DNA of 64,000 nt from an uncultured Acidobacteriota bacterium (GCA_963803995.1 CAWDOT010000003.1:3822-67821), one strand, 5' to 3'. Shown: positions 14,320-23,493, counted from the first letter of the stretch. The notes: generated by a model from the letters alone, not told the origin. A program made the numbers and translations.

Positions 14320-14814
14320 ATGCCCGGCGAGCTCACCGTCCGCGAGATCGGCCCCGAGGAGTTCGACCTCGTCTGGCCGATCTTCCGCGCCGTCGTCGCG
14401 GCCGGCGACACGTACTCCTACGCTCCCGACACTCCGCTCGAGGAGGCGCGCGCGCTCTGGACGGCGCCGCCGGCGCGCTGCTTCGTGGCCGAGCAGGACG
14501 GCGCCGTGATCGGCACCTACCGGCTCAAGGCCAACCAGCCGGGTCTCGGCGACCACGTCGCCAACGCCGGCTACATGGTCGCGCCCGCGGCGCGCGGGCG
14601 GGGCATCGCCACGCAGCTGTGCGAGCACTCGATCGACGTCGCGCGCGCCGCCGGGTTCAAGGCCATGCAGTTCAACTTCGTGGTCTCGACCAACGAGGCC
14701 GCCGTGCGCCTCTGGTGGCGCCTCGGCTTCGAGATCGTCGGCCGCGTCCCGCGCGCCTTCCGCCACGCCGAGCTCGGGCCGACCGACGTGCTCGTGATGT
14801 ACCGCGACCTCTGA
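14320..14814 (+). CDS. GNAT family acetyltransferase
   Basis: NQPGLGDHVANAGYMV, RGRGIA, QFNFVVSTNEAAVRLW. Confidence 0.9.
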   Translation: MPGELTVREIGPEEFDLVWPIFRAVVAAGDTYSYAPDTPLEEARALWTAPPARCFVAEQDGAVIGTYRLKANQPGLGDHVANAGYMVAPAARGRGIATQLCEHSIDVARAAGFKAMQFNFVVSTNEAAVRLWWRLGFEIVGRVPRAFRHAELGPTDVLVMYRDL

Positions 14815-14860
14815 GGCGAGCGCCCGCCGCGCCGGCCCCGTCCGCTCTTCTGCACCTGCC

Positions 14861-15655
14861 ATGGTCCGCCCCGCCCCACGCCCCGATCGCGACGCCGAGT
14901 TCACGCGCCTGGTCGACGCCGAGGGGGCGCGGCTGCTCGCCTTCGGGCGGCGCTTCTGCGGCGACGGCTCGGACGCCGAGGACCTCGTCCAGGAGACCTT
15001 CGCGCACGCCTATCGCGCCTTCGACCAGCTCGAGGACCCCGGCCACGCCCGCGCCTGGCTCTACACGATCGCCCGCCGCGCCTGCCAGCGCATGCACCGG
15101 CGGCGCTCCGGCGAGCCGGTCCGGCTCGAGTCGCTCGCCGAGCTCGAGCCGCGCCGGGGAGAGATCCTGGCGGAGCTGCCCGGCGAGCCGGGCGATCCGC
15201 ACGGCGACCGGCTGCGCTCCGAGGCGCGCGAACGGGTGGAGCGGGCGCTGGCGGCGCTGCCGGACCCCTTCCGCCAGACCCTCGTCCTCGCCGACCTCGC
15301 CGAGCTCTCGCTCGCCGAGATCGCCGCCGTGCTCGGAGTCAAGGAAGCCACCGTCAAGACGCGCCTCCACCGGGCGCGGCTGAAGCTGCGCCAGGTGCTC
15401 GCCGAGGAGCTGCCGCACCGGCCCGCCCCCGACCCCGACCACGCGCGCCGGGTCTGCCTCGACCTGCTGCACGCCAAGCTCGAGGCGATGGACCGCCAGG
15501 TCCCCTTCCCCTACAGCGACAAGGCGCTCTGCGAGCGCTGCCGTAACCTGCTGGGAACGCTCGACCTGGCGAGCGACTCCTGCCGCGCCCTGGGCGCCGG
15601 ACCGTTCCCCGCCGGGCTGCGCACGAGAGTCCTCGCGACCGTCCGGAAGGGCTAA
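14861..15655 (+). CDS. ECF sigma factor with Cys-containing C-terminal extension
   Basis: Region 2 DAEDLVQETF and AWLYTIAR; region 4 EIAAVLGVKEATVKTRLHRAR; tail of about 80 aa with C...CERC...C. Confidence 0.9.
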   Translation: MVRPAPRPDRDAEFTRLVDAEGARLLAFGRRFCGDGSDAEDLVQETFAHAYRAFDQLEDPGHARAWLYTIARRACQRMHRRRSGEPVRLESLAELEPRRGEILAELPGEPGDPHGDRLRSEARERVERALAALPDPFRQTLVLADLAELSLAEIAAVLGVKEATVKTRLHRARLKLRQVLAEELPHRPAPDPDHARRVCLDLLHAKLEAMDRQVPFPYSDKALCERCRNLLGTLDLASDSCRALGAGPFPAGLRTRVLATVRKG

Positions 15656-15679
15656 GCTTCCCGGGCGGCGGCGCGGCGC

Positions 15680-15708
15680 GGGAACCTAAGGCGGCAGCCG
15701 TGCCTCTC
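15680..15708 (+). promoter_or_regulatory. Candidate ECF promoter for trxA (GGGAACC-N16-CCTCT)
   Basis: GGAACC 15681-15686, 16-nt spacer, CCTCTC 15703-15708; same architecture at 22676-22704 on the minus strand. Confidence 0.6.
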
Positions 15709-15773
15709 AACCAGCGAGCGCAGCCCGGTCGCAGCCGGGACCGCCCGACCAGCCCCGCCAGAGGAGAGAGAAC

Positions 15774-16100
15774 GTGAAGCAGATCGAATACATCGGAAAC
15801 GCGCAGGACTTCCAGACGAGCATCGCCGGCTCGACGCCGGTGCTGGTGGACTTCTGGGCCCCCTGGTGCGGCCCCTGCAAGATGATCGCCCCGGCCCTCG
15901 AGGAGCTCTCCGAGGAGCTCTCCGGCAAGGTGCGCATCGCCAAGGTGAACGTCGACGACCTGCCGGAGCTCGCCTCGCCCTTCTACATCCAGGGCATCCC
16001 GACGCTGATCCTCTTCAAGGAGGGGCGGGAGATCGACCGCATCGTCGGCGCCGCGCCGAAGGCCCGGATGAAGGAATGGCTGCTCGGCCGCGCCGCCTGA
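15774..16100 (+). CDS. trxA: Thioredoxin
   Basis: VDFWAPWCGPCKMIAP, GIPTL; GTG start with AGGAG RBS. Confidence 0.95.
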   Translation: MKQIEYIGNAQDFQTSIAGSTPVLVDFWAPWCGPCKMIAPALEELSEELSGKVRIAKVNVDDLPELASPFYIQGIPTLILFKEGREIDRIVGAAPKARMKEWLLGRAA

Positions 16101-16663
16101 GCGCGAGCGGCGCCCTCGCCGCGCTCTTCTTCGTGCTCCACGCCGCGGCCGGGGCGCAGGCGCCCCCGGCCGCACCGACGACGCCGTCGACGCCGCTCGC
16201 CAACCAGCGGACGCCCCTGCCCGGGATCTTCACGGGCGGCGCGCCGAAGACGGTCGACGGCATCCCGGCGGTCGCCGCGCTCGGCATCCGGACTTTCGTC
16301 GACCTGCGCACCGACGCCGAAGCGACGCCCGAGGTGAGAGCCGCGGTCGAAGCGGCCGGCATGGCCTACGAACGGGTGCCGATCGGCGGCGACGCCGATC
16401 TCGACCTCGCCACCGCCCGCGCGCTCGACCAGCTGCTCGACGATCCCGCGCGCTACCCGGTCGCGGTCGTCTGCTCGAGCGGCAACCGGAGCGGCGCGCT
16501 GCTCGCGGTCGAGGGCTTCTGGCTCGACGGCCGGCCCCCGGAGGAGGCTCTCGGGCTCGGCAGGAGCGCGGGTCTCACCCGCCTGGAGCCTTCCGTGCGC
16601 CTCCTGCTCGGCCTGCCGCCGCTCCCGCCGCCCGCACCCGCCGCCGCCCCTCCGAGCCGCTGA
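16076..16663 (+). CDS. Exported DUF442/PTP-like sulfurtransferase or phosphatase
   Basis: In-frame ATG 16076 gives a signal peptide; GIRTFVDLR; active loop VCSSGNRS. Confidence 0.7.
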   Translation: MAARPRRLSASGALAALFFVLHAAAGAQAPPAAPTTPSTPLANQRTPLPGIFTGGAPKTVDGIPAVAALGIRTFVDLRTDAEATPEVRAAVEAAGMAYERVPIGGDADLDLATARALDQLLDDPARYPVAVVCSSGNRSGALLAVEGFWLDGRPPEEALGLGRSAGLTRLEPSVRLLLGLPPLPPPAPAAAPPSR

Positions 16664-16738
16664 GTTCCGGCCCCGCGCGACGCGGGGGGCCGACGCGGCC
16701 TAGACTTCCCTCCGGAGGATCTCCATGGAGACCACCGG

Positions 16739-18096
16739 ATGACCGATCCGCTCTTCTGGCACCGCCTGCAGTTCGGCTTCACCATCACCTACCACTACCT
16801 CTTCCCGCAGCTCACGATGGGGCTGGCGCTGCTGATCGTCGTCCTCAAGGGGATCGGCCTGCGCACCGGACGGCCCCGAGTGGAACGACGCGGCGCGCTT
16901 CTGGATCCGCATCTTCGGTCTCTCCTTCGCGATGGGCGTCGTCACCGGCGTCCCGATGGAGTTCCAGTTCGGCACCAACTGGGCGCAGTTCTCGGCGAAG
17001 ACCGGCGGCGTCATCGGCCAGACGCTCGCGATGGAGGGGATCTTCGCCTTCTTCCTCGAGTCGAGCTTCCTCGCCCTGCTCGTCTGGGGCGAACGCCGGC
17101 TGGGCGAGCGCAGGCACTTCCTCGCCGCGGTCGCGCTCTGGGTCGGCAGCTGGCTCTCGGGCTACTTCATCGTCACCACCAACGCCTTCATGCAGCACCC
17201 GGTCGGGTCACGAGCTCGGCCCGGACGGCACCTTCCAGCTCGCCGACCTCTCCGCCTTCCTCTTCAACCCCTGGGCGATCGCGCAGTACGCCCACACGAT
17301 GATGGGCGCGATCGTCACCGGCGCCTTCGCGATGGCGGCGCTCGGCGCCTTCTGGACGCTGCGCGGCGAGCACCGCGAGGCGGCGCGGGTCTCGCTCGCG
17401 ACCGGCGTCGTCGTCGGCCTCGCCGCGTCGATCCTGGTCGCGATGCCGACCGGCCACGTCCAGGGGCGGCTGGTCGCCGAGCACCAGCCGGCGGCGCTCG
17501 CCGGCGATGGAGGGGCGCTTCGAGAGCGGGCCGCGCGCGCCGCTCGCCGTGATCGGCCAGCCCAACGTCGCCGAGCGCAAGCTCGACAACCCGATCGAGC
17601 TGCCGGCGATGCTCTCTTACATCGCCTACGGCGACTTCTCGGCCGACGTCCGCGGGCTCGACTCCTTTCCCGAGGACGAGTGGCCGACCAACATCGAGCT
17701 GCTCTACTACGGCTTCCACGTGATGGTCGGGCCTCGGCACGCTGTTCATCGGCGTGATGGCGCTCGCCGCGCTCCAGCTTCTGCGCCGGAAGCTCGCGTC
17801 GAGCCGCTGGCTGCTCTGGATCCTCGCGCTTCGCCTTCCCCTTCCCGTTCATCGCCAACACCGCGGGCTGGATGACCGCCGAGCTCGGCCGCCAGCCCTG
17901 GCTGGTCTACGGCCTGCTGCGCACCGCCGACGGCGGCTCGCCCACCGTGCACGGCGGCTCGACGCTGTTCACGACCCTCGGCTTCGCCGGGCTCTACCTC
18001 GTGCTCGGCATCCTGTTCGTGATCCTCGTCGTGCGCGAGGTCGGTCACGGCCCGCGCCCGCTCGGCGCGCCGGGGCAGCCGGCGGCGGGGCACTGA
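16739..18096 (+). CDS. cydA: Cytochrome bd ubiquinol oxidase subunit I (several frameshifts in this sequence)
   Basis: Fragments in successive frames: RLQFGFTITYHYLFP, GVVTGVPMEFQFGTNW, NAFMQHP, HQPAALA/MEG, TAELGRQPW. Confidence 0.9.
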
Positions 18097-18106
18097 GGAG
18101 ATCGCC

Positions 18107-19154
18107 ATGGAAACGCTCTGGTTCTGGATCGCCTCGGTGATGGTCGCCGTCTACGTCGTGCTCGACGGCTTCGACTTCGGCGCCGGCATCCTGCATCTGG
18201 CGGTGGCGAAGAGCGACCGCGAGCGGCGCCAGGTGCTCGCCGCGATCGGCCCCTTCTGGGACGGCAACGAGGTCTGGCTGCTCGCGGGCGGCGGCGTGCT
18301 CTTCCTCGCCTTCCCGAAGGTGCTCGCCTCCGGGCTCTCGGGCTTCTATCTCGCGATCATGCTGGTGCTCTGGGTGCTGATCCTGCGCGGCATCGCGATC
18401 GAGTTCCGCTCGCACGTCGGCGACGGCATGTGGCGCGGCTTCTGGGACGGCACCTTCTGGCTCGCCTCGACGCTCGCGCCGGTGCTCTTCGGCGCCGCGC
18501 TCGGCAACCTCCTGCGCGGCGTGCCGCTCGACGAGAGCGGCTGGTTCGCGCTGCCGCTCTTCGATTCGTTCTCGCCGTCCGGCGCGCTCGGCATCCTCGA
18601 CTGGTACACGGTGCTCGCCGGCCTGCTCGCGCTCGTCGCGGTCGTCCACCACGGCGCGCTCTTCCTCGCCTGGAAGACCGACGGAGCGGTCGCACGAGCG
18701 GAGCCGCGCGTGGGCCGGGCGGCTCTTCCCGGCGGTGGTCGTGCTCTGGCTCGCCGCCAGCGTGGCGACCGCGAGCGTCGCGCCGGAGGTCTTCGCCGGC
18801 ATCCCGGGCCGTCCGCTCGCCTGGCTCGCGACCCTGCTCGCGGTCGTCGGAATCGCCATGAGCTTCGTCCACCGCCGAGCCGGCCGCGACCTCGCCGCGT
18901 TCCTCGGCTCGGCCGCTTTCCTGCTCGGCATCCTGGCGGCGACGGCGGCGTCGATCTACCCGACGATGCTGAAGTCGGCGACCGACCCGGCGCTCTCGCT
19001 GACCGCGATGAACTCCGCGGCGAGCGCGACCTCGCTCACCCGCGGCCTCTGGTGGTGGCCGGTCGGCCTCCTGCTGGCGATCGCCTACGCCGCCTTCCTC
19101 TTCCGCTTCCACCGCGGCAAGGTGCAGGCCGCGGCGGAGGGCGAGGGGTACTGA
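18107..19154 (+). CDS. cydB: Cytochrome bd oxidase subunit II (frameshift near 18700)
   Basis: VLDGFDFGAG, IGPFWDGNEVWL, LRGIAIEFR; C-terminus in ORF 18735..19154. Confidence 0.92.
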
Positions 19155-19173
19155 CCGGCCCGTTCCGGCGGGC

Positions 19174-20803
19174 TCAGTTCCAGCGGGACGTGTCGCCGAC
19201 CTCGAAGTCGTCGGAGAACAGGTGGCCCGGGGGCAGCGCGTAGATCACCATCACCGCGCCGGCGTTCGCGCCCGAGATCTCGCTGCCGATGTCCTCCTGC
19301 GGTACGCCGATCGCGAGATCGTCCCGCCCGTCGCCGTTGAAGTCGCCCGTGGCGAGGGACTTTCCGAGGACGTCCCCATCTTCCGCGACGCCCGGAACAC
19401 CCGCCGCGAACTGGCTCCAGTTCTGCCCGCTGGGGGCCGTCATGGAGGTCCCGCCGCTCAGGATCTGGACCAGGCCGTCGGCGTCGTCGGTCGCCCAGTC
19501 CTCGCCGGGGACTCCGATGGCCAGGTCCTCGCCTTCGGCCCCGTCGAAGTACCCGCTGGCCAGAGCTTCTCCGAAGTAGTCGTACGCCTCTGGAGCGGAG
19601 GAGACGCCGTCCGAGTCCTGATCCCAGAGCGAACAGGAAGTGCAGCTGACGGTCAGGGAGCAGCGGCAGACGAGCACCCAGCCCGCGTCCTGCGCGCCGG
19701 GAGGGTCCGCCCGGCGGCTGCCGATCGCCAGATCGGGCACCGAGGGGGGCGGCGCCACCACGAACCTGCCGGTCGCGAGCGATTCGCCGAAGTACGCGCC
19801 CGGGCTCGAGCCGCGGTCGAGGTAGTCCTCGGTGTTGTCGAGGCCGCCGGCCGAGCCGCGCAGGATGTGCACCGAGCCGCAGAGGGTGAGCGGATCCGTG
19901 ATCGGGTAGCACGCGGAGTCCGGAGCGCCGACCACGAGCTCGTCGTAGCCGTCCAGGTTGAAGTCCGCGGTCGCGAGCGCCCGCCCGAAGTAGGAGATGC
20001 GGTCGCTGGCCCAGCTGAACGCCAGATCCGCCGGCTCCCAGTAGTCATTCGAGAAGGTGGGCGCGACGAGGCCGGAGTCGCTGCCGTAATAGAGGAGGAC
20101 GGCTCCGGTCGCATGACTGCCGGAACCGGTCTTGTCGGAAGCACCGGGGGCGCCGACCGCGAGATCGTCCCGACCGTCGCCGTCGAAGTCGCCCGCGGCC
20201 AGCGCGAGCCCAATATTGAAGATAGCCCGTCCATTCGGCGGAGAAGAAGAAGGTCGAGAAGCTCTGGTTGCCCGACGAGCCGAGACCGGAGGCCGACCCG
20301 TAGAGGATCTGGATCTCTCCGGTCCTCTCCTCCGCGCCGTCGTCGTGGTAAGGCGCACCGATCGCGAGATCGTCGTAGCCGTCCCCGTCGAAGTCCCCGG
20401 TCGCCAGAGTCGTCGCCCACTCGTCGCCGTCCTCGGGAGAGCCCTGGAGCAGGAGATTGGCCTGGCTCCAGACCTGGGCTCGGCCGCTGGCGAGACCGTC
20501 CCGGGTCCCGTAGAGGACGGTCAGGGACCCGGCGTCGGTGCGGAAGCCGTCGGGCGGAATCGCGAAGTCCTCCCCCGGAACTCCGATCGCGAGATCCGCG
20601 AAGCCGTCGCCGTCGAAGTCGCCGGCGGCCAGGCCCGACCCGAACTTGTCGTTCTGCTCGGATTCTCCGGGCACGCCCTCGGCGCCCTGTTGCCAGAGCT
20701 GCGAATGGACGGCCGAGAGCTGCGCCGCGAGGACGCCGGGCAGGAGCGCGAAGCCGACGATGCAAAGCAGCAGCGCGGCGCGGAGAGAGCACTTCGCAGG
20801 CAT
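19174..20803 (-). CDS. Secreted FG-GAP/integrin-alpha beta-propeller protein with FxDDFExGD..W tail (frameshift near 20230)
   Basis: Signal peptide; repeated GDFDGDGxDDLAIGxP units over two frames; ends HLFSDDFEVGDTSRWN. Confidence 0.85.
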
Positions 20804-21137
20804 GGTTCGAACCTCCTCGTGTCATGGATCCACATACGGTTACGCCGAGGAATCGAGAGAGACAGGACGGCCGGCGGCGTTCGTCGCGCCCGCGGTCGGG
20901 CGCTCCGGCGTGCGCGTCGACTCCAGCTTGGAGGCCCAAGGGAAGATCGTGGCTTCGAGGCGAGGCGGGATCGGGACCGTCGATTCGAGGCCTCGGCGAG
21001 AAACGCGAGAGGCTTCGGGACTGCTGGAGGTCCAGGGGCCGCGAGCATGCCTCGACCCTCCTCGCCGGGGAGCGACTGCTCCTCTCGTACGCCTCCTCGG
21101 AGAGCCTGTCAACCTCCCGCGAGGCGGGCGGGGGCCG

Positions 21138-21761
21138 TTACCTCCCGGCGCTGGCCAGCGGCACCCGCACGCTCACCGCGCCGCGCAGGTCGCCGGCGGC
21201 GTAGCCGGTGGCGGGGTCGTCCGGGAAGCGGCGGGCGAGGATCTCGGCGACGCCGGGGGCGAGGTCGGCGGCCTGACCGTGGCAGGCGAGGCAGTGGGGC
21301 GCCACCACCACCGGTCGCAGGTAGCGCAGCTCCGCGGCGCCGCCGCCCGCCGGGGTCACGACTTCGGCGACCTCGGGAGGCAGCCCTTTCGCCTTCATCT
21401 CCGCCGCCAGCCGCTCGAGCGCGGCGCGCTCGTAGTCGTCGGGGGCGTCGGCGGGATTGCGGTAGCGCAGCGAGACGCGGCGCACGGAGAGGCCCGACTT
21501 CGCCGCCTCCTCGCGGGTCGCGCCCTGCGCCTTCTCGGCGCAGGCTTCGACCGCCGCCGCGGGGCCGCCGCGGGACATCTCCTGCTCGAGCAGCCCGCGC
21601 ACTCTCGCCATCACCGCGTCCGCCGCCTGCCGCGCCTGCGCGAGCTGCGCTTCGGGCAGGGCGCCGGGCAACGGAGCGGGAGTCTGCGGAAAGAGAATGG
21701 CGGCCCCGCCGGCGAGCGCGGCCGTGAGTCCCAACGACAGCACCCAGTCGCGACGGATCAT
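21138..21761 (-). CDS. DUF3365/Tll0287-like c-type cytochrome
   Basis: Signal or TM helix, RNPADAPDDYE, RYLRP, CLACHG, DPATGYAAGDLRGAVSV. Confidence 0.85.
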   Translation of the reverse strand: MIRRDWVLSLGLTAALAGGAAILFPQTPAPLPGALPEAQLAQARQAADAVMARVRGLLEQEMSRGGPAAAVEACAEKAQGATREEAAKSGLSVRRVSLRYRNPADAPDDYERAALERLAAEMKAKGLPPEVAEVVTPAGGGAAELRYLRPVVVAPHCLACHGQAADLAPGVAEILARRFPDDPATGYAAGDLRGAVSVRVPLASAGR

Positions 21762-21783
21762 CGCTGCCTCCTCGGCGGGACGT

Positions 21784-22071
21784 TCAGGGCTCGTCGTAGT
21801 CGATCCTGCAGCCGCAGCCGTCCCACATGCGGTCGTAGGTTCCCAGCCGGCGGTCGACGAACGCGTCGGCCGCCGCACGGTCGTCGAATCGGCGGAGCAG
21901 AAGGCGGCCGTCCGGCGCCTGCTCCTGCACCCAGTGCTCGCCGTCGAAGACGAGCAGGCGGATCGGACCGGCGAGCGTGGTGTCCTCTTCGCGGAGCACA
22001 CCCGCGCGCAGCAGGATCGCTTCCCAGGTGGGGACGTCGATCTCGCGCGGGGATACGGCAGTCGCGGTCAC
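21784..22071 (-). CDS. Hypothetical protein (~95 aa) with C-terminal WDGCGC
   Basis: Protein-like C-terminal part of ORF 21784..22203; GTG start (22071 or 22077) near GAGGG; lies between two co-oriented genes. Confidence 0.65.
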   Translation of the reverse strand: MTATAVSPREIDVPTWEAILLRAGVLREEDTTLAGPIRLLVFDGEHWVQEQAPDGRLLLRRFDDRAAADAFVDRRLGTYDRMWDGCGCRIDYDEP

Positions 22072-22108
22072 GCTCACCCTCTTCGAGTCCCGGAGATCCC
22101 GGGCGCGC

Positions 22109-22654
22109 TCAACCCTCGGCGGGGGCGTGCTTGCAGCAGCCGCAGCCCTTGCCCTGGCCGCCCTGCGCCTGCGCGCCGTGGCGGTGGCCCTTGCCCTGGC
22201 CACCCTTCATCGCGCAGCCGGCGCCGCCAGTCATCGCCCAGCGCGGCGCGCCCTCGGCGTCGCGCAGCTCGTAGGTCGCCTCGCCCTTCTTCACGGTGCG
22301 GGCGAGGAAGTCGGCGGGCGCGTCGTTCTTCGGCTTCGAGCCGGTCACCGCGATCTCGTCGCCGGTCGAGAAGCCGGCGCCGATCTCCGCGAGGTAGGCG
22401 CCCGGCCCGAGGCCGACCTCGACGTCGCCGGTGGCGGTGGTCAGGCGGACGTGGATGCCGGCCCTCGGGCAGGACTGCGGCAGGACCTCGGCGACCTTGC
22501 CGGTGAGCGTCGTCTCGGCGGCGAGGTCGTAGACCGGCGGGCCGCCGCCCTGGTGGTCGTGCCCGGTTTTCGCGGCCGGAGCGTCCTGGGCGAGAAGCGG
22601 TGCGGCGACGATGGCGAGCGCGGCGAGCGCGAGCGACGGAATGCGGAGCTTCAT
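22109..22654 (-). CDS. Exported OB-fold-like protein (MamS/MamX-like by recall) with His/Cys-rich ends
   Basis: Signal peptide; YD...TLTGKV, LGPGAYL, GDEIAVTGS, LRDAEGAPRW; ends CGCCKH; GAGGAG RBS. Confidence 0.7.
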   Translation of the reverse strand: MKLRIPSLALAALAIVAAPLLAQDAPAAKTGHDHQGGGPPVYDLAAETTLTGKVAEVLPQSCPRAGIHVRLTTATGDVEVGLGPGAYLAEIGAGFSTGDEIAVTGSKPKNDAPADFLARTVKKGEATYELRDAEGAPRWAMTGGAGCAMKGGQGKGHRHGAQAQGGQGKGCGCCKHAPAEG

Positions 22655-22675
22655 CGGGGTATCTCCTCGGTACTG

Positions 22676-22704
22676 AAGAGGCGCGCGGCGGCCGCGCGGT
22701 TCCC
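22676..22704 (-). promoter_or_regulatory. Candidate ECF promoter (GGGAACC-N16-CCTCT)
   Basis: Minus strand GGGAACC GCGCGGCCGCCGCGCG CCTCTT, just upstream of the RBS of 22654; matches the trxA element. Confidence 0.6.
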
Positions 22705-22783
22705 GGCGCGCCGCACGCTTCCTGTTCGCCCGTCAGTTTCGCTCGCTCCACCGCTCCGCCGCCCACCCCTCGGGGCGGTCCGC

Positions 22784-23215
22784 TCAGGCCGCGAGGGGAT
22801 CGAGCAGCCGCAGGCCCTCGAAGCGGCGGAAATCGAGGTCGTGGGTGGCGAGCGTCGCTCCGTGCTCGAGCGCCAGTGCGGCCAACAACGCGTCCGGAAC
22901 CAGCGGGCCGCGGGCGTTCGAATCCTCCAGCAGGGGGCGCGCGATGTCCCAGTAGCGAGGGCCCGGCTCGAGCAGGACCACCATGGGACGCGCGAGCCAG
23001 GCGTCGACGGCGCGGGTCGCCTCGCCGAGAGTGAGCGGCGCGGGGAAGACCGCGCGGTTCGTCGTCAGGCGCAGGAAGGCTCCGATCGTCGCCCAGCAGA
23101 GAGCGAATGGCTGCGGCGAGCTCAGGCTCTTCTCGAGCCAGGTCCGCGCCCGGTCGTGCTCCGGCGCGCTCGAGTTGTACGCGTAGAGCAGCAGGTTGGC
23201 GTCGCAGAGGATCAT
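22784..23215 (-). CDS. vapC: VapC PIN-domain toxin
   Basis: MILCDANLLLYA, FLRLTTN, VPDALLAALALEHG, THDLDFRRF. Confidence 0.9.
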   Translation of the reverse strand: MILCDANLLLYAYNSSAPEHDRARTWLEKSLSSPQPFALCWATIGAFLRLTTNRAVFPAPLTLGEATRAVDAWLARPMVVLLEPGPRYWDIARPLLEDSNARGPLVPDALLAALALEHGATLATHDLDFRRFEGLRLLDPLAA

Positions 23216-23457
23216 CGGTGTCCGGGGCCCTCGGCCACCTCGAGCAGCTCCGCGACGTTGCTGTAGTCGAGGCCGGGCGCGACGCCCAGAGGACGCGCCT
23301 CGACGGTGAACGGCGGCGCGCCGGCGACCGCCCGCCGCCGCGCGAGCCCCTCGCGCAACGCCTCGTTGAGCGTCGCCTTGAAGCTCTTGCCGGTGCGCTG
23401 CATCTCGCGCCGGAGCCGCTCCGCGACCTCCGGGTCCAGAGTCACGGTCGTGCGCAT
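23212..23457 (-). CDS. vapB: VapB-type (RHH) antitoxin
   Basis: MRTTVTLD...SFKATLNEALREGL; stop overlaps the vapC start. Confidence 0.85.
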   Translation of the reverse strand: MRTTVTLDPEVAERLRREMQRTGKSFKATLNEALREGLARRRAVAGAPPFTVEARPLGVAPGLDYSNVAELLEVAEGPGHR

Positions 23458-23493
23458 CGTCATGATGCTAGGAACAACGCATCATGATGTCAA
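23457..23493 (-). promoter_or_regulatory. Sigma70 promoter with two overlapping palindromic operators for vapBC-1
   Basis: TTGACA (23488-23493), 17-nt spacer, TAGCAT (23465-23470), ATG 7 nt later; GCATCATGATGC-like boxes at 23457-23468 (10/12) and 23479-23490 (11/12). Confidence 0.75.

Follow-up and report, generated by a model that had tools for sequence, protein, structure and literature searches.

To our knowledge, the bacterial sensors of sulfide and persulfide known so far act as repressors and belong to the ArsR, CsoR and related families, and we found no extracytoplasmic function (ECF) sigma factor described as a sulfide or persulfide regulator in open-access papers and bioRxiv. According to the relevant sections of the papers on them, BigR/SqrR (ArsR family) and CstR (CsoR family) sense through cysteines and control regulons of DUF442 proteins, ETHE1-type dioxygenases, rhodaneses and TauE-/YeeE-type transporters (PMC5823870, PMC8643695, PMC5595413, PMC7315123). 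As to ECF sigma factors, the parts of the literature that deal with the individual groups describe SigR-RsrA of Streptomyces (ECF12), in which thioredoxin is induced on thiol-reactive stress via a cysteine switch (PMC7826278); CorE/CorE2 of Myxococcus (ECF238, former ECF44; PMC7826278, PMC8999054) and, in Burkholderia, OrbS, which work without an anti-sigma factor and have an on-board Cys-rich C-terminal extension; ECF29, for which the -35 element GGGAACCT is predicted and which lacks an anti-sigma factor, its C-terminal extension being a suggested sensor of reactive oxygen species, disulfide or metal stress (PMC7826278); and ECF41, ECF42 and ECF56, whose fused C-terminal domain contacts the sigma core and modulates its activity in place of an anti-sigma factor (PMC8999054). 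Here we compare with these systems an ECF sigma factor gene (14861..15655, + strand) and two predicted promoters, P1 and P2, found in a 64,000-nucleotide stretch of DNA from an uncultured Acidobacteriota bacterium (GCA_963803995.1, CAWDOT010000003.1:3822-67821). The window, that is, the whole stretch analysed, is contig C3:3822-67821 of a genome of 3.75 Mb in 27 contigs with 72.6% G+C, and positions are counted from its first letter.

Our favoured reading, to which we assign a probability of roughly 0.55, is that the gene encodes a one-component sigma factor that responds to sulfide, persulfide or thiol stress and reads P1 and P2. Its best-founded part is that P1 and P2 are promoters read by this sigma factor, which comparative sequence evidence makes very probable.

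The first-pass annotation had noted two copies of GGGAACC-N16-CCTCT with equal spacing on opposite strands, and the ECF gene immediately upstream of the first. Exactly two copies are indeed present in the window, at 15680-15707 (+) and 22677-22704 (-), which moves their ends from 15708 to 15707 and from 22676 to 22677, and the string common to both reaches GCCTCT, one base beyond CCTCT. In P1 (15680..15707, +) the -35 element GGGAACC occupies 15680-15686 and the -10 element GCCTCT 15702-15707; in P2 (22677..22704, -) the same elements lie at 22704-22698 and 22682-22677. Both copies are intergenic and each faces into a gene. Copy 1 begins 25 nt past the ECF stop codon (15655) and ends 66 nt ahead of the GTG start (15774) of trxA, and copy 2 ends 22 nt ahead of the ATG (22654) of a MamS-like gene. 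Shuffles of the window gave a mean of 0.01 matches and never two (0 of 100 shuffles). This test is circular because the pattern was derived from these same two copies, and independent tests were therefore sought.

In the whole genome there are three exact copies of the pattern and none of a reversed control pattern. When sites throughout the genome were ranked with a weight matrix for which 28 sites in other genomes, and none in this one, had been used, copy 1 came 1st (score 30.3), a site on contig C8 2nd (28.1) and copy 2 4th (21.3), with the next score after rank 4 at 15.3; the maxima in shuffled genomes were 20.7, 19.6 and 16.8. By matrix score alone copy 2 is borderline; in its support, the orthologous MamS-like gene carries the motif in three other genomes. 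The match at rank 3 (21.4; C6:207427-207458, -) lies inside a 23S rRNA gene and was rejected as a promoter, being taken as chance; it shows that scores near 21 can occur by chance. The third exact copy, at C8:376333-376360 (+; positions 1334-1361 of locus L181), stands 9 nt ahead of the ATG of a DUF2938 membrane protein gene in a near-leaderless arrangement, and this gene is followed by an AHSA1/SRPBCC gene and then a DUF4386 gene. The C8 site probably heads a third operon of the regulon.

Over 31 sites the consensus was refined to cGGGAACCttt-N-cgtG(T/C)CTCT, in which the -10 element is G-(T/C/G)-CTCT with c-g-t before it, more than the bare CCTCT. Conservation extends to positions that the search did not impose: among the 31 sites, C precedes GGGAACC in 26 and T follows it in 20, and, counted from the -10 G, position -3 is C in 25 and position -1 is T in 24. 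The motif has the form of an ECF-type promoter, with a GGAAC-type -35 element and a short -10 element about 16-17 nt away, and its recognition by this sigma factor we infer from linkage. About 9-11 nt downstream of CTCT there is a G in 24 of the 31 sites and then an A in 18 of the 31, regardless of the distance to the start codon, and this G-A may mark the context of the transcription start. Matches at L163/L164, L165-L167, L177, L179, L180 and L182 were treated as chance and excluded from the 31-site matrix because no gene start lay close downstream or the genes were unrelated (aldehyde dehydrogenase, primary sigma factor, radical-SAM HemN-like, Fic).

The motif is linked to this ECF gene across genomes. 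Full-length ECF orthologues (46-74% identity, C-terminal part included) were found in 18 of 40 sampled relatives. In the window, as in loci L063-L071, L075, L081, L083 and L086, the motif stands right behind the ECF stop codon. Most same-genus relatives carry the refined motif directly behind the ECF gene, and two named metagenome-assembled genome (MAG) loci have it there at 46% and 51% identity. The spacer is 2 nt shorter in L066, and one extra gene separates ECF gene and motif in L080. The pattern GGGAACC-N15-G-N-CTCT was then counted in all 41 genomes, with the reversed pattern as control. Within family f1, it was exact in 12 of the 13 genomes that have a full-length ECF orthologue (25 matches versus 5 for the control) and present in 1 of the 12 that lack one (2 matches versus 9); G024, the exception among the ECF-bearing genomes, has variant sites ending in CTCC. 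The match rate in more distant families is near that of the control, and we therefore draw no conclusion for them. A scan of metagenome contigs for peptides peculiar to the C-terminal extension added 80 loci. Of 71 non-redundant loci, 19 have a relaxed motif no more than 160 nt past the ECF stop codon; the two controls, the opposite strand and the interior of the gene, each gave 0 of 71. The earlier claim that this one sigma factor drives both motifs, and through them a thiol, sulfide or metal stress module, gains support, of a comparative kind, from the conserved placement of the motif behind ECF orthologues, from the co-occurrence of ECF gene and motif across genomes and from the recurrent target families. 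Upstream of the ECF gene no motif on the same strand was found in the window, in the 18 relatives or in 47 metagenome loci. Since the predicted target promoter comes after the sigma gene and not before it, searches for autoregulatory motifs upstream of sigma genes would miss promoters of this sort.

That the motif is a product of chance, or is read by another of the genome's ECF sigma factors and stands beside this gene by coincidence, is highly improbable. Even in relatives as distant as 46-51% identity it is physically tied to the ECF stop codon, both metagenome controls were zero, and the presence and absence of ECF gene and motif correlate within family f1, even if the genome has many ECF paralogues (43 first-look candidates), GGAAC-type -35 elements are common to many ECF groups (GGGAAC(CT) for ECF29 and ECF268 in the group descriptions of PMC7826278) and order-level genomes without an orthologue also have a few pattern matches, at about the control rate.

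In a soil-metagenome subgroup with about 54% identity in the extension (L203-L206, L209, L214, L219 and L220) the usual motif is absent. The ECF stop codon is followed there by a conserved string starting TAATCCCCACCGATCGG.AAGAGTCCGC, and about 140 nt past that string stands (C/G)TGGAACGG(C/G/T)GATTGGA. This could represent another variant of the promoter or else an RNA element.

The genes behind the motif bear on the signal. In the window and nine relatives trxA comes first, with a DUF442 gene next in six of the nine. In the window, L064, L066 and L071 it is the MamS-like gene that comes first behind the motif, and in L071 a Tll0287-like homologue follows it. Other first or operonic targets in the genomes are OsmC, a ferritin-like protein, a rhodanese, TauE, YgaP-like transmembrane proteins (in three) and a MacAB-like system. 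Fusions of a metallo-beta-lactamase (MBL) domain with rhodanese stand behind the motif in two genome loci, in L086 by Pfam and in L075 by similarity of the sequence start only; G040 has a DUF442-like protein there, and G021 a Pyr_redox_2 flavoprotein with a weak match, far below cut-off, to type III sulfide:quinone oxidoreductase (SQR). Operons for an outer-membrane efflux protein (OEP), a membrane fusion protein (MFP) and a resistance-nodulation-division (RND) permease follow the motif in four genomes (G024, G034, G028 and G035). In the metagenome loci the first gene encodes a thioredoxin in 4 cases, an MBL or MBL+rhodanese protein in 4, a YeeE/TsuA-like Sulf_transp protein in 4, an OEP in 4, and an MFP, a 1-Cys peroxiredoxin, a DUF302 protein and a zinc-ribbon protein in 1 each, besides several unknowns; L256, which resembles L270 and has no Pfam match, is likely a fifth MBL case.

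The content expected of a reactive sulfur species (RSS) response is thus largely present behind the motif, namely MBL+rhodanese, rhodanese, DUF442-like, Sulf_transp and TauE proteins, with SQR represented by one weak match. In the sections of PMC5823870 on these proteins, Blh joins an ETHE1-type dioxygenase to a DUF442 domain that is a proven sulfurtransferase, and the sulfide-sensing operon of BigR adds a TauE-type transporter; cytochrome bd, in the pertinent part of PMC4815019, sustains respiration in the presence of sulfide. The first-pass annotation had left the choice between a redox, a sulfide and a metal stress module. The sulfur-gene targets match known sulfide regulons, and of these candidates sulfide or persulfide fits the recurrent target families best; the thiol peroxidases, the ferritin-like protein and above all the RND pumps are unspecific to it. 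We give about even odds to sulfide or persulfide as the physiological signal.

With the same link between sigma factor and promoter, the signal could instead be general thiol-oxidative stress (disulfide, peroxide or electrophile), as for SigR-RsrA, with the sulfur enzymes as side members. No first target is commoner than thioredoxin (10 genome loci and 4 metagenome loci), OsmC, 1-Cys peroxiredoxin, a ferritin-like protein and cytochrome bd also stand behind the motif, and a Cys-based switch would suit this signal equally; but MBL/rhodanese fusions of the persulfide-dioxygenase type, rhodanese, DUF442, YeeE/TsuA-like, TauE and YgaP-like proteins recur, which in the portion of PMC5823870 that treats such genes are hallmarks of sulfide and persulfide regulons and not of peroxide or disulfide regulons. 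We consider general thiol stress unlikely as the signal.

A metal-stress regulon, in which the Cys-rich extension would bind iron or a soft metal (Cu, Zn, Cd), on the model of CorE/CorE2 or OrbS, while the link of sigma factor and promoter stays the same, would leave the sulfur enzymes unexplained. The extension measures about 80 aa and not about 20, the linker has no CxC, and no P-type ATPase, multicopper oxidase or cation diffusion facilitator transporter was seen behind the motif in the examined loci. The known ECF sigma factors with Cys-rich C-terminal extensions do sense metals (CorE2 and ECF238, in the parts of PMC7826278 and PMC8999054 devoted to them, and OrbS), the OEP/MFP/RND operons recur behind the motif in the four genomes named above and in 4-5 metagenome loci, and the MamS-like protein with its His-/Cys-rich tails and the ferritin-like target would suit a metal signal. 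The one RND permease tested, however, is nearer to the multidrug type (174.9 bits with multidrug-type models versus 115.6 with CusA/CzcA, both below cut-off). A metal signal appears to us distinctly unlikely.

The favoured reading, with a sulfur or thiol signal, further depends on the protein itself. The 264-aa product has sigma2 at residues 17-83 (Pfam Sigma70_r2, 4.5e-19), sigma4 at residues 123-180 (Sigma70_r4_2, 1.4e-14) and no other sigma domain (no sigma3, no sigma1.1), which is the domain make-up of ECF (group IV) sigma factors. Among NCBIfam models only the generic sigma70-ECF model TIGR02937 passes (103.4 bits versus a cut-off of 42.9), and the top Foldseek matches, SigH, SigL, AlgU and SigE, align over the core only. 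Two typical ECF traits, an adjacent anti-sigma gene and an autoregulatory upstream promoter, are lacking: no anti-sigma gene adjoins the ECF gene, whose +1 neighbour is trxA. After sigma4 comes an extension of about 80 residues (residues ~186-264; 15416..15652, +) with the cysteine pattern C-x24-C-x2-C-x13-C, and C199, C224, C227 and C241 are invariant in the alignments. C33 and C75 in sigma2 are nearly invariant among the orthologues, and the stretch between C75 and C199 contains no Cys that is invariant or nearly so.

None of 14 orthologues had a Pfam match in the extension at E<=10. Out of 1.84 billion representative proteins, 136 matched a profile of the extension at E<=0.001, and the full-length matches are about 255-300 aa long with the domain at the C-terminal end; the hosts of the sigma family are Acidobacteriota, Gemmatimonadota and Planctomycetota MAGs. 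Fourteen of the 136, picked for odd lengths, were checked by Pfam: 8 have sigma domains before the extension, 5 have no Pfam match, and one weak match is a true zinc-binding anti-sigma (ZAS) protein that was matched outside its zinc finger. Judging from these sequences, the extension appears to be almost always fused to ECF sigma factors. One of the 8, P0052, is a 745-aa call in which ECF and extension are continued by an outer-membrane efflux protein; it may be a genuine fusion or the product of read-through in gene calling, and it adds a further case of ECF-OEP adjacency. The idea that the extension is a fused ZAS (zf-HC2) anti-sigma domain was rejected, as it has no match to PF13490 or to H-x3-C-x2-C; C-x2-C is present, but the residue four positions earlier is variable. 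A six-frame search of the genome with PF13490 located 7 ZAS domains, all of them away from the ECF gene, and hhalign of the extension versus these 7 gave a probability of 4.9%.

AlphaFold2, run with 43 sequences, predicts the extension as three helices with a mean pLDDT of 76.8. When the core (residues 1-185) and the extension were predicted as a complex with Zn, the ipSAE was 0.82 versus 0.08 for the best of three controls, a mark reached by 116 of 157 solved complexes and by 2 of 215 mismatched pairs; at least 88% of the contacts agreed between runs, and the partner pLDDT was at least 77. The extension is predicted to contact residues 11-51 of sigma2 and residues 119-181 of sigma4, helix 166-181 included. 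What counts against these values is that the complex pairs the halves of one polypeptide and may echo solved sigma/anti-sigma complexes, and the prediction is therefore support for an intramolecular clamp and no proof of it. Direct sensing through the extension is a possibility to which we would give a little less than an even chance.

On the mechanism that we propose, the extension would in the resting state behave like a fused anti-sigma domain, packed between sigma2 and sigma4 and covering the -35 recognition helix. The clamp would be released when its cysteines are modified or cross-linked by sulfane sulfur (persulfide, polysulfide) or by other thiol-reactive species, or when a bound metal is lost, and the freed sigma factor would then transcribe a defence set against sulfide, reactive sulfur and thiol-redox stress. 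In this genome the set would comprise trxA, the exported DUF442 sulfurtransferase and cydAB on the P1 side, and the exported MamS-like protein, an open reading frame (ORF) ending in WDGCGC and the Tll0287 haem protein on the P2 side; in relatives it would include persulfide dioxygenase-rhodanese fusions, rhodanese, YeeE- and TauE-type transporters, OsmC, peroxiredoxin and RND efflux pumps. The strongest form of the proposal, that the sigma factor itself senses RSS via a fused Cys4 clamp and so would be the first positively acting sigma-type sensor of sulfide or persulfide and the founder of an undescribed ECF group, is put forward tentatively, and we hold it for rather doubtful.

Several observations weigh against our reading. 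The promoter assignment is comparative, with transcription starts, signal and sigma dependence predicted from it, and related genomes are non-independent samples. The P2 score (21.3) is near the highest shuffled-genome maximum (20.7). Of the orthologue-bearing relatives, 6 of 18 (G028, G034, G040, G035, G021 and G030) have no motif right after the ECF gene, and neither do 52 of the 71 metagenome loci. The expectation that orthologues of the copy-2 gene carry the motif held in L064, L066 and L071 and failed in L068, and in G022 cydA has no motif. Many of the targets (thioredoxin, OsmC, peroxiredoxin, ferritin, cytochrome bd) are general oxidative-stress genes, RND efflux pumps match the sulfur enzymes in frequency and are left unexplained by a sulfide signal, the DUF442 match in the window is marginal and the SQR match far under cut-off. 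As to the sensor, the extension has no detectable homology to ZAS anti-sigma domains, and the AlphaFold2 monomer reached a pTM of 0.40.

The genes on the P1 side begin with trxA (15774..16100, +), a thioredoxin gene with the active site WCGPC (Pfam Thioredoxin, 3.6e-32). The next gene (16076..16663, +) encodes an exported DUF442/BLH-phosphatase-like protein, a putative sulfurtransferase, with matches to PF04273 (5.6e-06, slightly above cut-off) and to the NCBIfam sulfur-transferase family TIGR01244 (2.5e-08, under cut-off); its single Cys lies in a VVCSSGNRSG loop. The ORF upstream of the ECF gene ends 46 nt ahead of the ECF start. On the P2 side, the exported MamS/MamX-like protein (22109..22654, -) matches the NCBIfam MamS model at 2.7e-05, under cut-off, and MamS_MamX clusters of the Atlas at 0.92; it has HDHQ close to its N-terminus, ends in a CGCC/His-rich tail and has no PDB sequence match at E<=1. 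The small ORF ending in WDGCGC (21787..22077, -), whose start is uncertain, has a 53% identical copy in L069 and no Pfam or NCBIfam match (Atlas best score 0.82, no family). Last comes the exported Tll0287-like (DUF3365) protein (21138..21761, -; PF11845, 1.9e-24) with one CLACH haem-c motif, from which a gap of 335 nt on the - strand leads to an FG-GAP gene.

Between these two sets lie cydAB and the FG-GAP gene. cydA (16739..18096, +) is split into five reading frames, whose tblastn pieces are 90-96% identical to the intact genes of L069 and L071, and cydB (18107..19154, +) has one frame break, a single-base insertion near 18691. Relative to L069/L071 the cydA insertions are at about 16872, 17203, 17506, 17732 and 17828; all six insertions in cydAB are +1 and none is in a long homopolymer, and a 92%-identical metagenome contig that covers the first two cydA positions has no insertion there. 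The breaks are taken as assembly errors or very recent damage because the pieces of broken genes remain about 85-96% identical in protein to intact relatives, so that cydAB has either assembly errors or is a fresh pseudogene. Marker completeness is about 65-66% for this genome (G000, 27 contigs) and for the single-contig relative G013 and 90-98% for fragmented relatives, and frameshift-rich long-read assemblies would fit the low values. Both in the window and in the 92%-identical metagenome contig, cydAB comes after trxA-DUF442 on the same strand; it has the motif directly ahead in one relative, G020, while the G022 gene noted above lacks it. The FG-GAP repeat protein gene (19174..20803, -) is spread over two overlapping ORFs in different frames (20045-20803 and 19174-20358), which suggests another indel. 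It had been proposed to be a later insertion, and this is compatible with its distribution: 20 ECF loci from relatives have no match to it, and its homologues, at 38-45% identity in 3 of 40 relatives, are all on contigs other than that of the ECF locus.

A terminator and sigma-70 scan of 14500-23300 gave 0 promoter-like and 4 terminator-like sites versus 1.9 expected. Assembled contigs from RNA libraries that align to the same interval are mostly matches to the conserved thioredoxin active-site region of other organisms; two short ones match trxA perfectly, and such contigs cannot reveal transcript starts. Just upstream of P2, an ORF with a PIN domain (22784-23215, -; Pfam 6.5e-13) and a small ORF (23212-23463, -) that overlaps its start by 4 nt look like a VapBC-type toxin-antitoxin pair.

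If our reading is true, a Cys4 switch would be tied to sulfide detoxification in abundant and little-studied phyla of soil, sediment and wastewater, and the MamS-like exported proteins, Tll0287/DUF3365, DUF2938, the WDGCGC ORF and the YgaP-like transmembrane proteins would gain a functional context. The promoter and sigma factor form a compact pair that is amenable to testing.

Set beside the known systems, the sigma factor would belong to an uncharacterised ECF family, which the published descriptions of ECF12, ECF29 and ECF238 set apart from these groups. SigR-RsrA has its sensor in a separate, soluble ZAS anti-sigma factor encoded at +1, as is characteristic of ECF12, whereas here trxA is at +1, the cysteines are in a fused extension without a zf-HC2 match, no promoter copy lies upstream of the sigma gene, and sulfur-oxidation genes are among the targets. 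ECF238, to which CorE/CorE2 belong, is characterised in the passages on this group by a Cys-rich extension of about 20 aa plus CxC in the sigma2-sigma4 linker; our sigma factor has an extension of about 80 aa, four times longer, and no linker Cys, and its predicted regulon, unlike those of CorE/CorE2 and OrbS, is one of sulfur and thiol defence. With ECF29 the -35 element agrees. The section of PMC7826278 on that group, however, gives the -10 element CATCCAAT, an extension of about 30 aa with RCE/D, hosts among Proteobacteria and Bacteroidetes, and predicted autoregulation, while here we find the -10 element G(T/C)CTCT, an extension of about 80 aa in which the residue after R-C is R, S, A, E or Q, hosts of other phyla, and no motif upstream of the sigma gene. 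BigR/SqrR and CstR share the regulon but are DNA-binding repressors freed by cysteine modification, unrelated in sequence and fold to the present protein, a sigma factor that would act positively. ECF41, ECF42 and ECF56 have SnoaL-like or other fused domains where this protein has a small three-helix Cys4 module that falls outside the Pfam families; if the reading holds, this module would replace the anti-sigma factor and represent a new mode of ECF switching.

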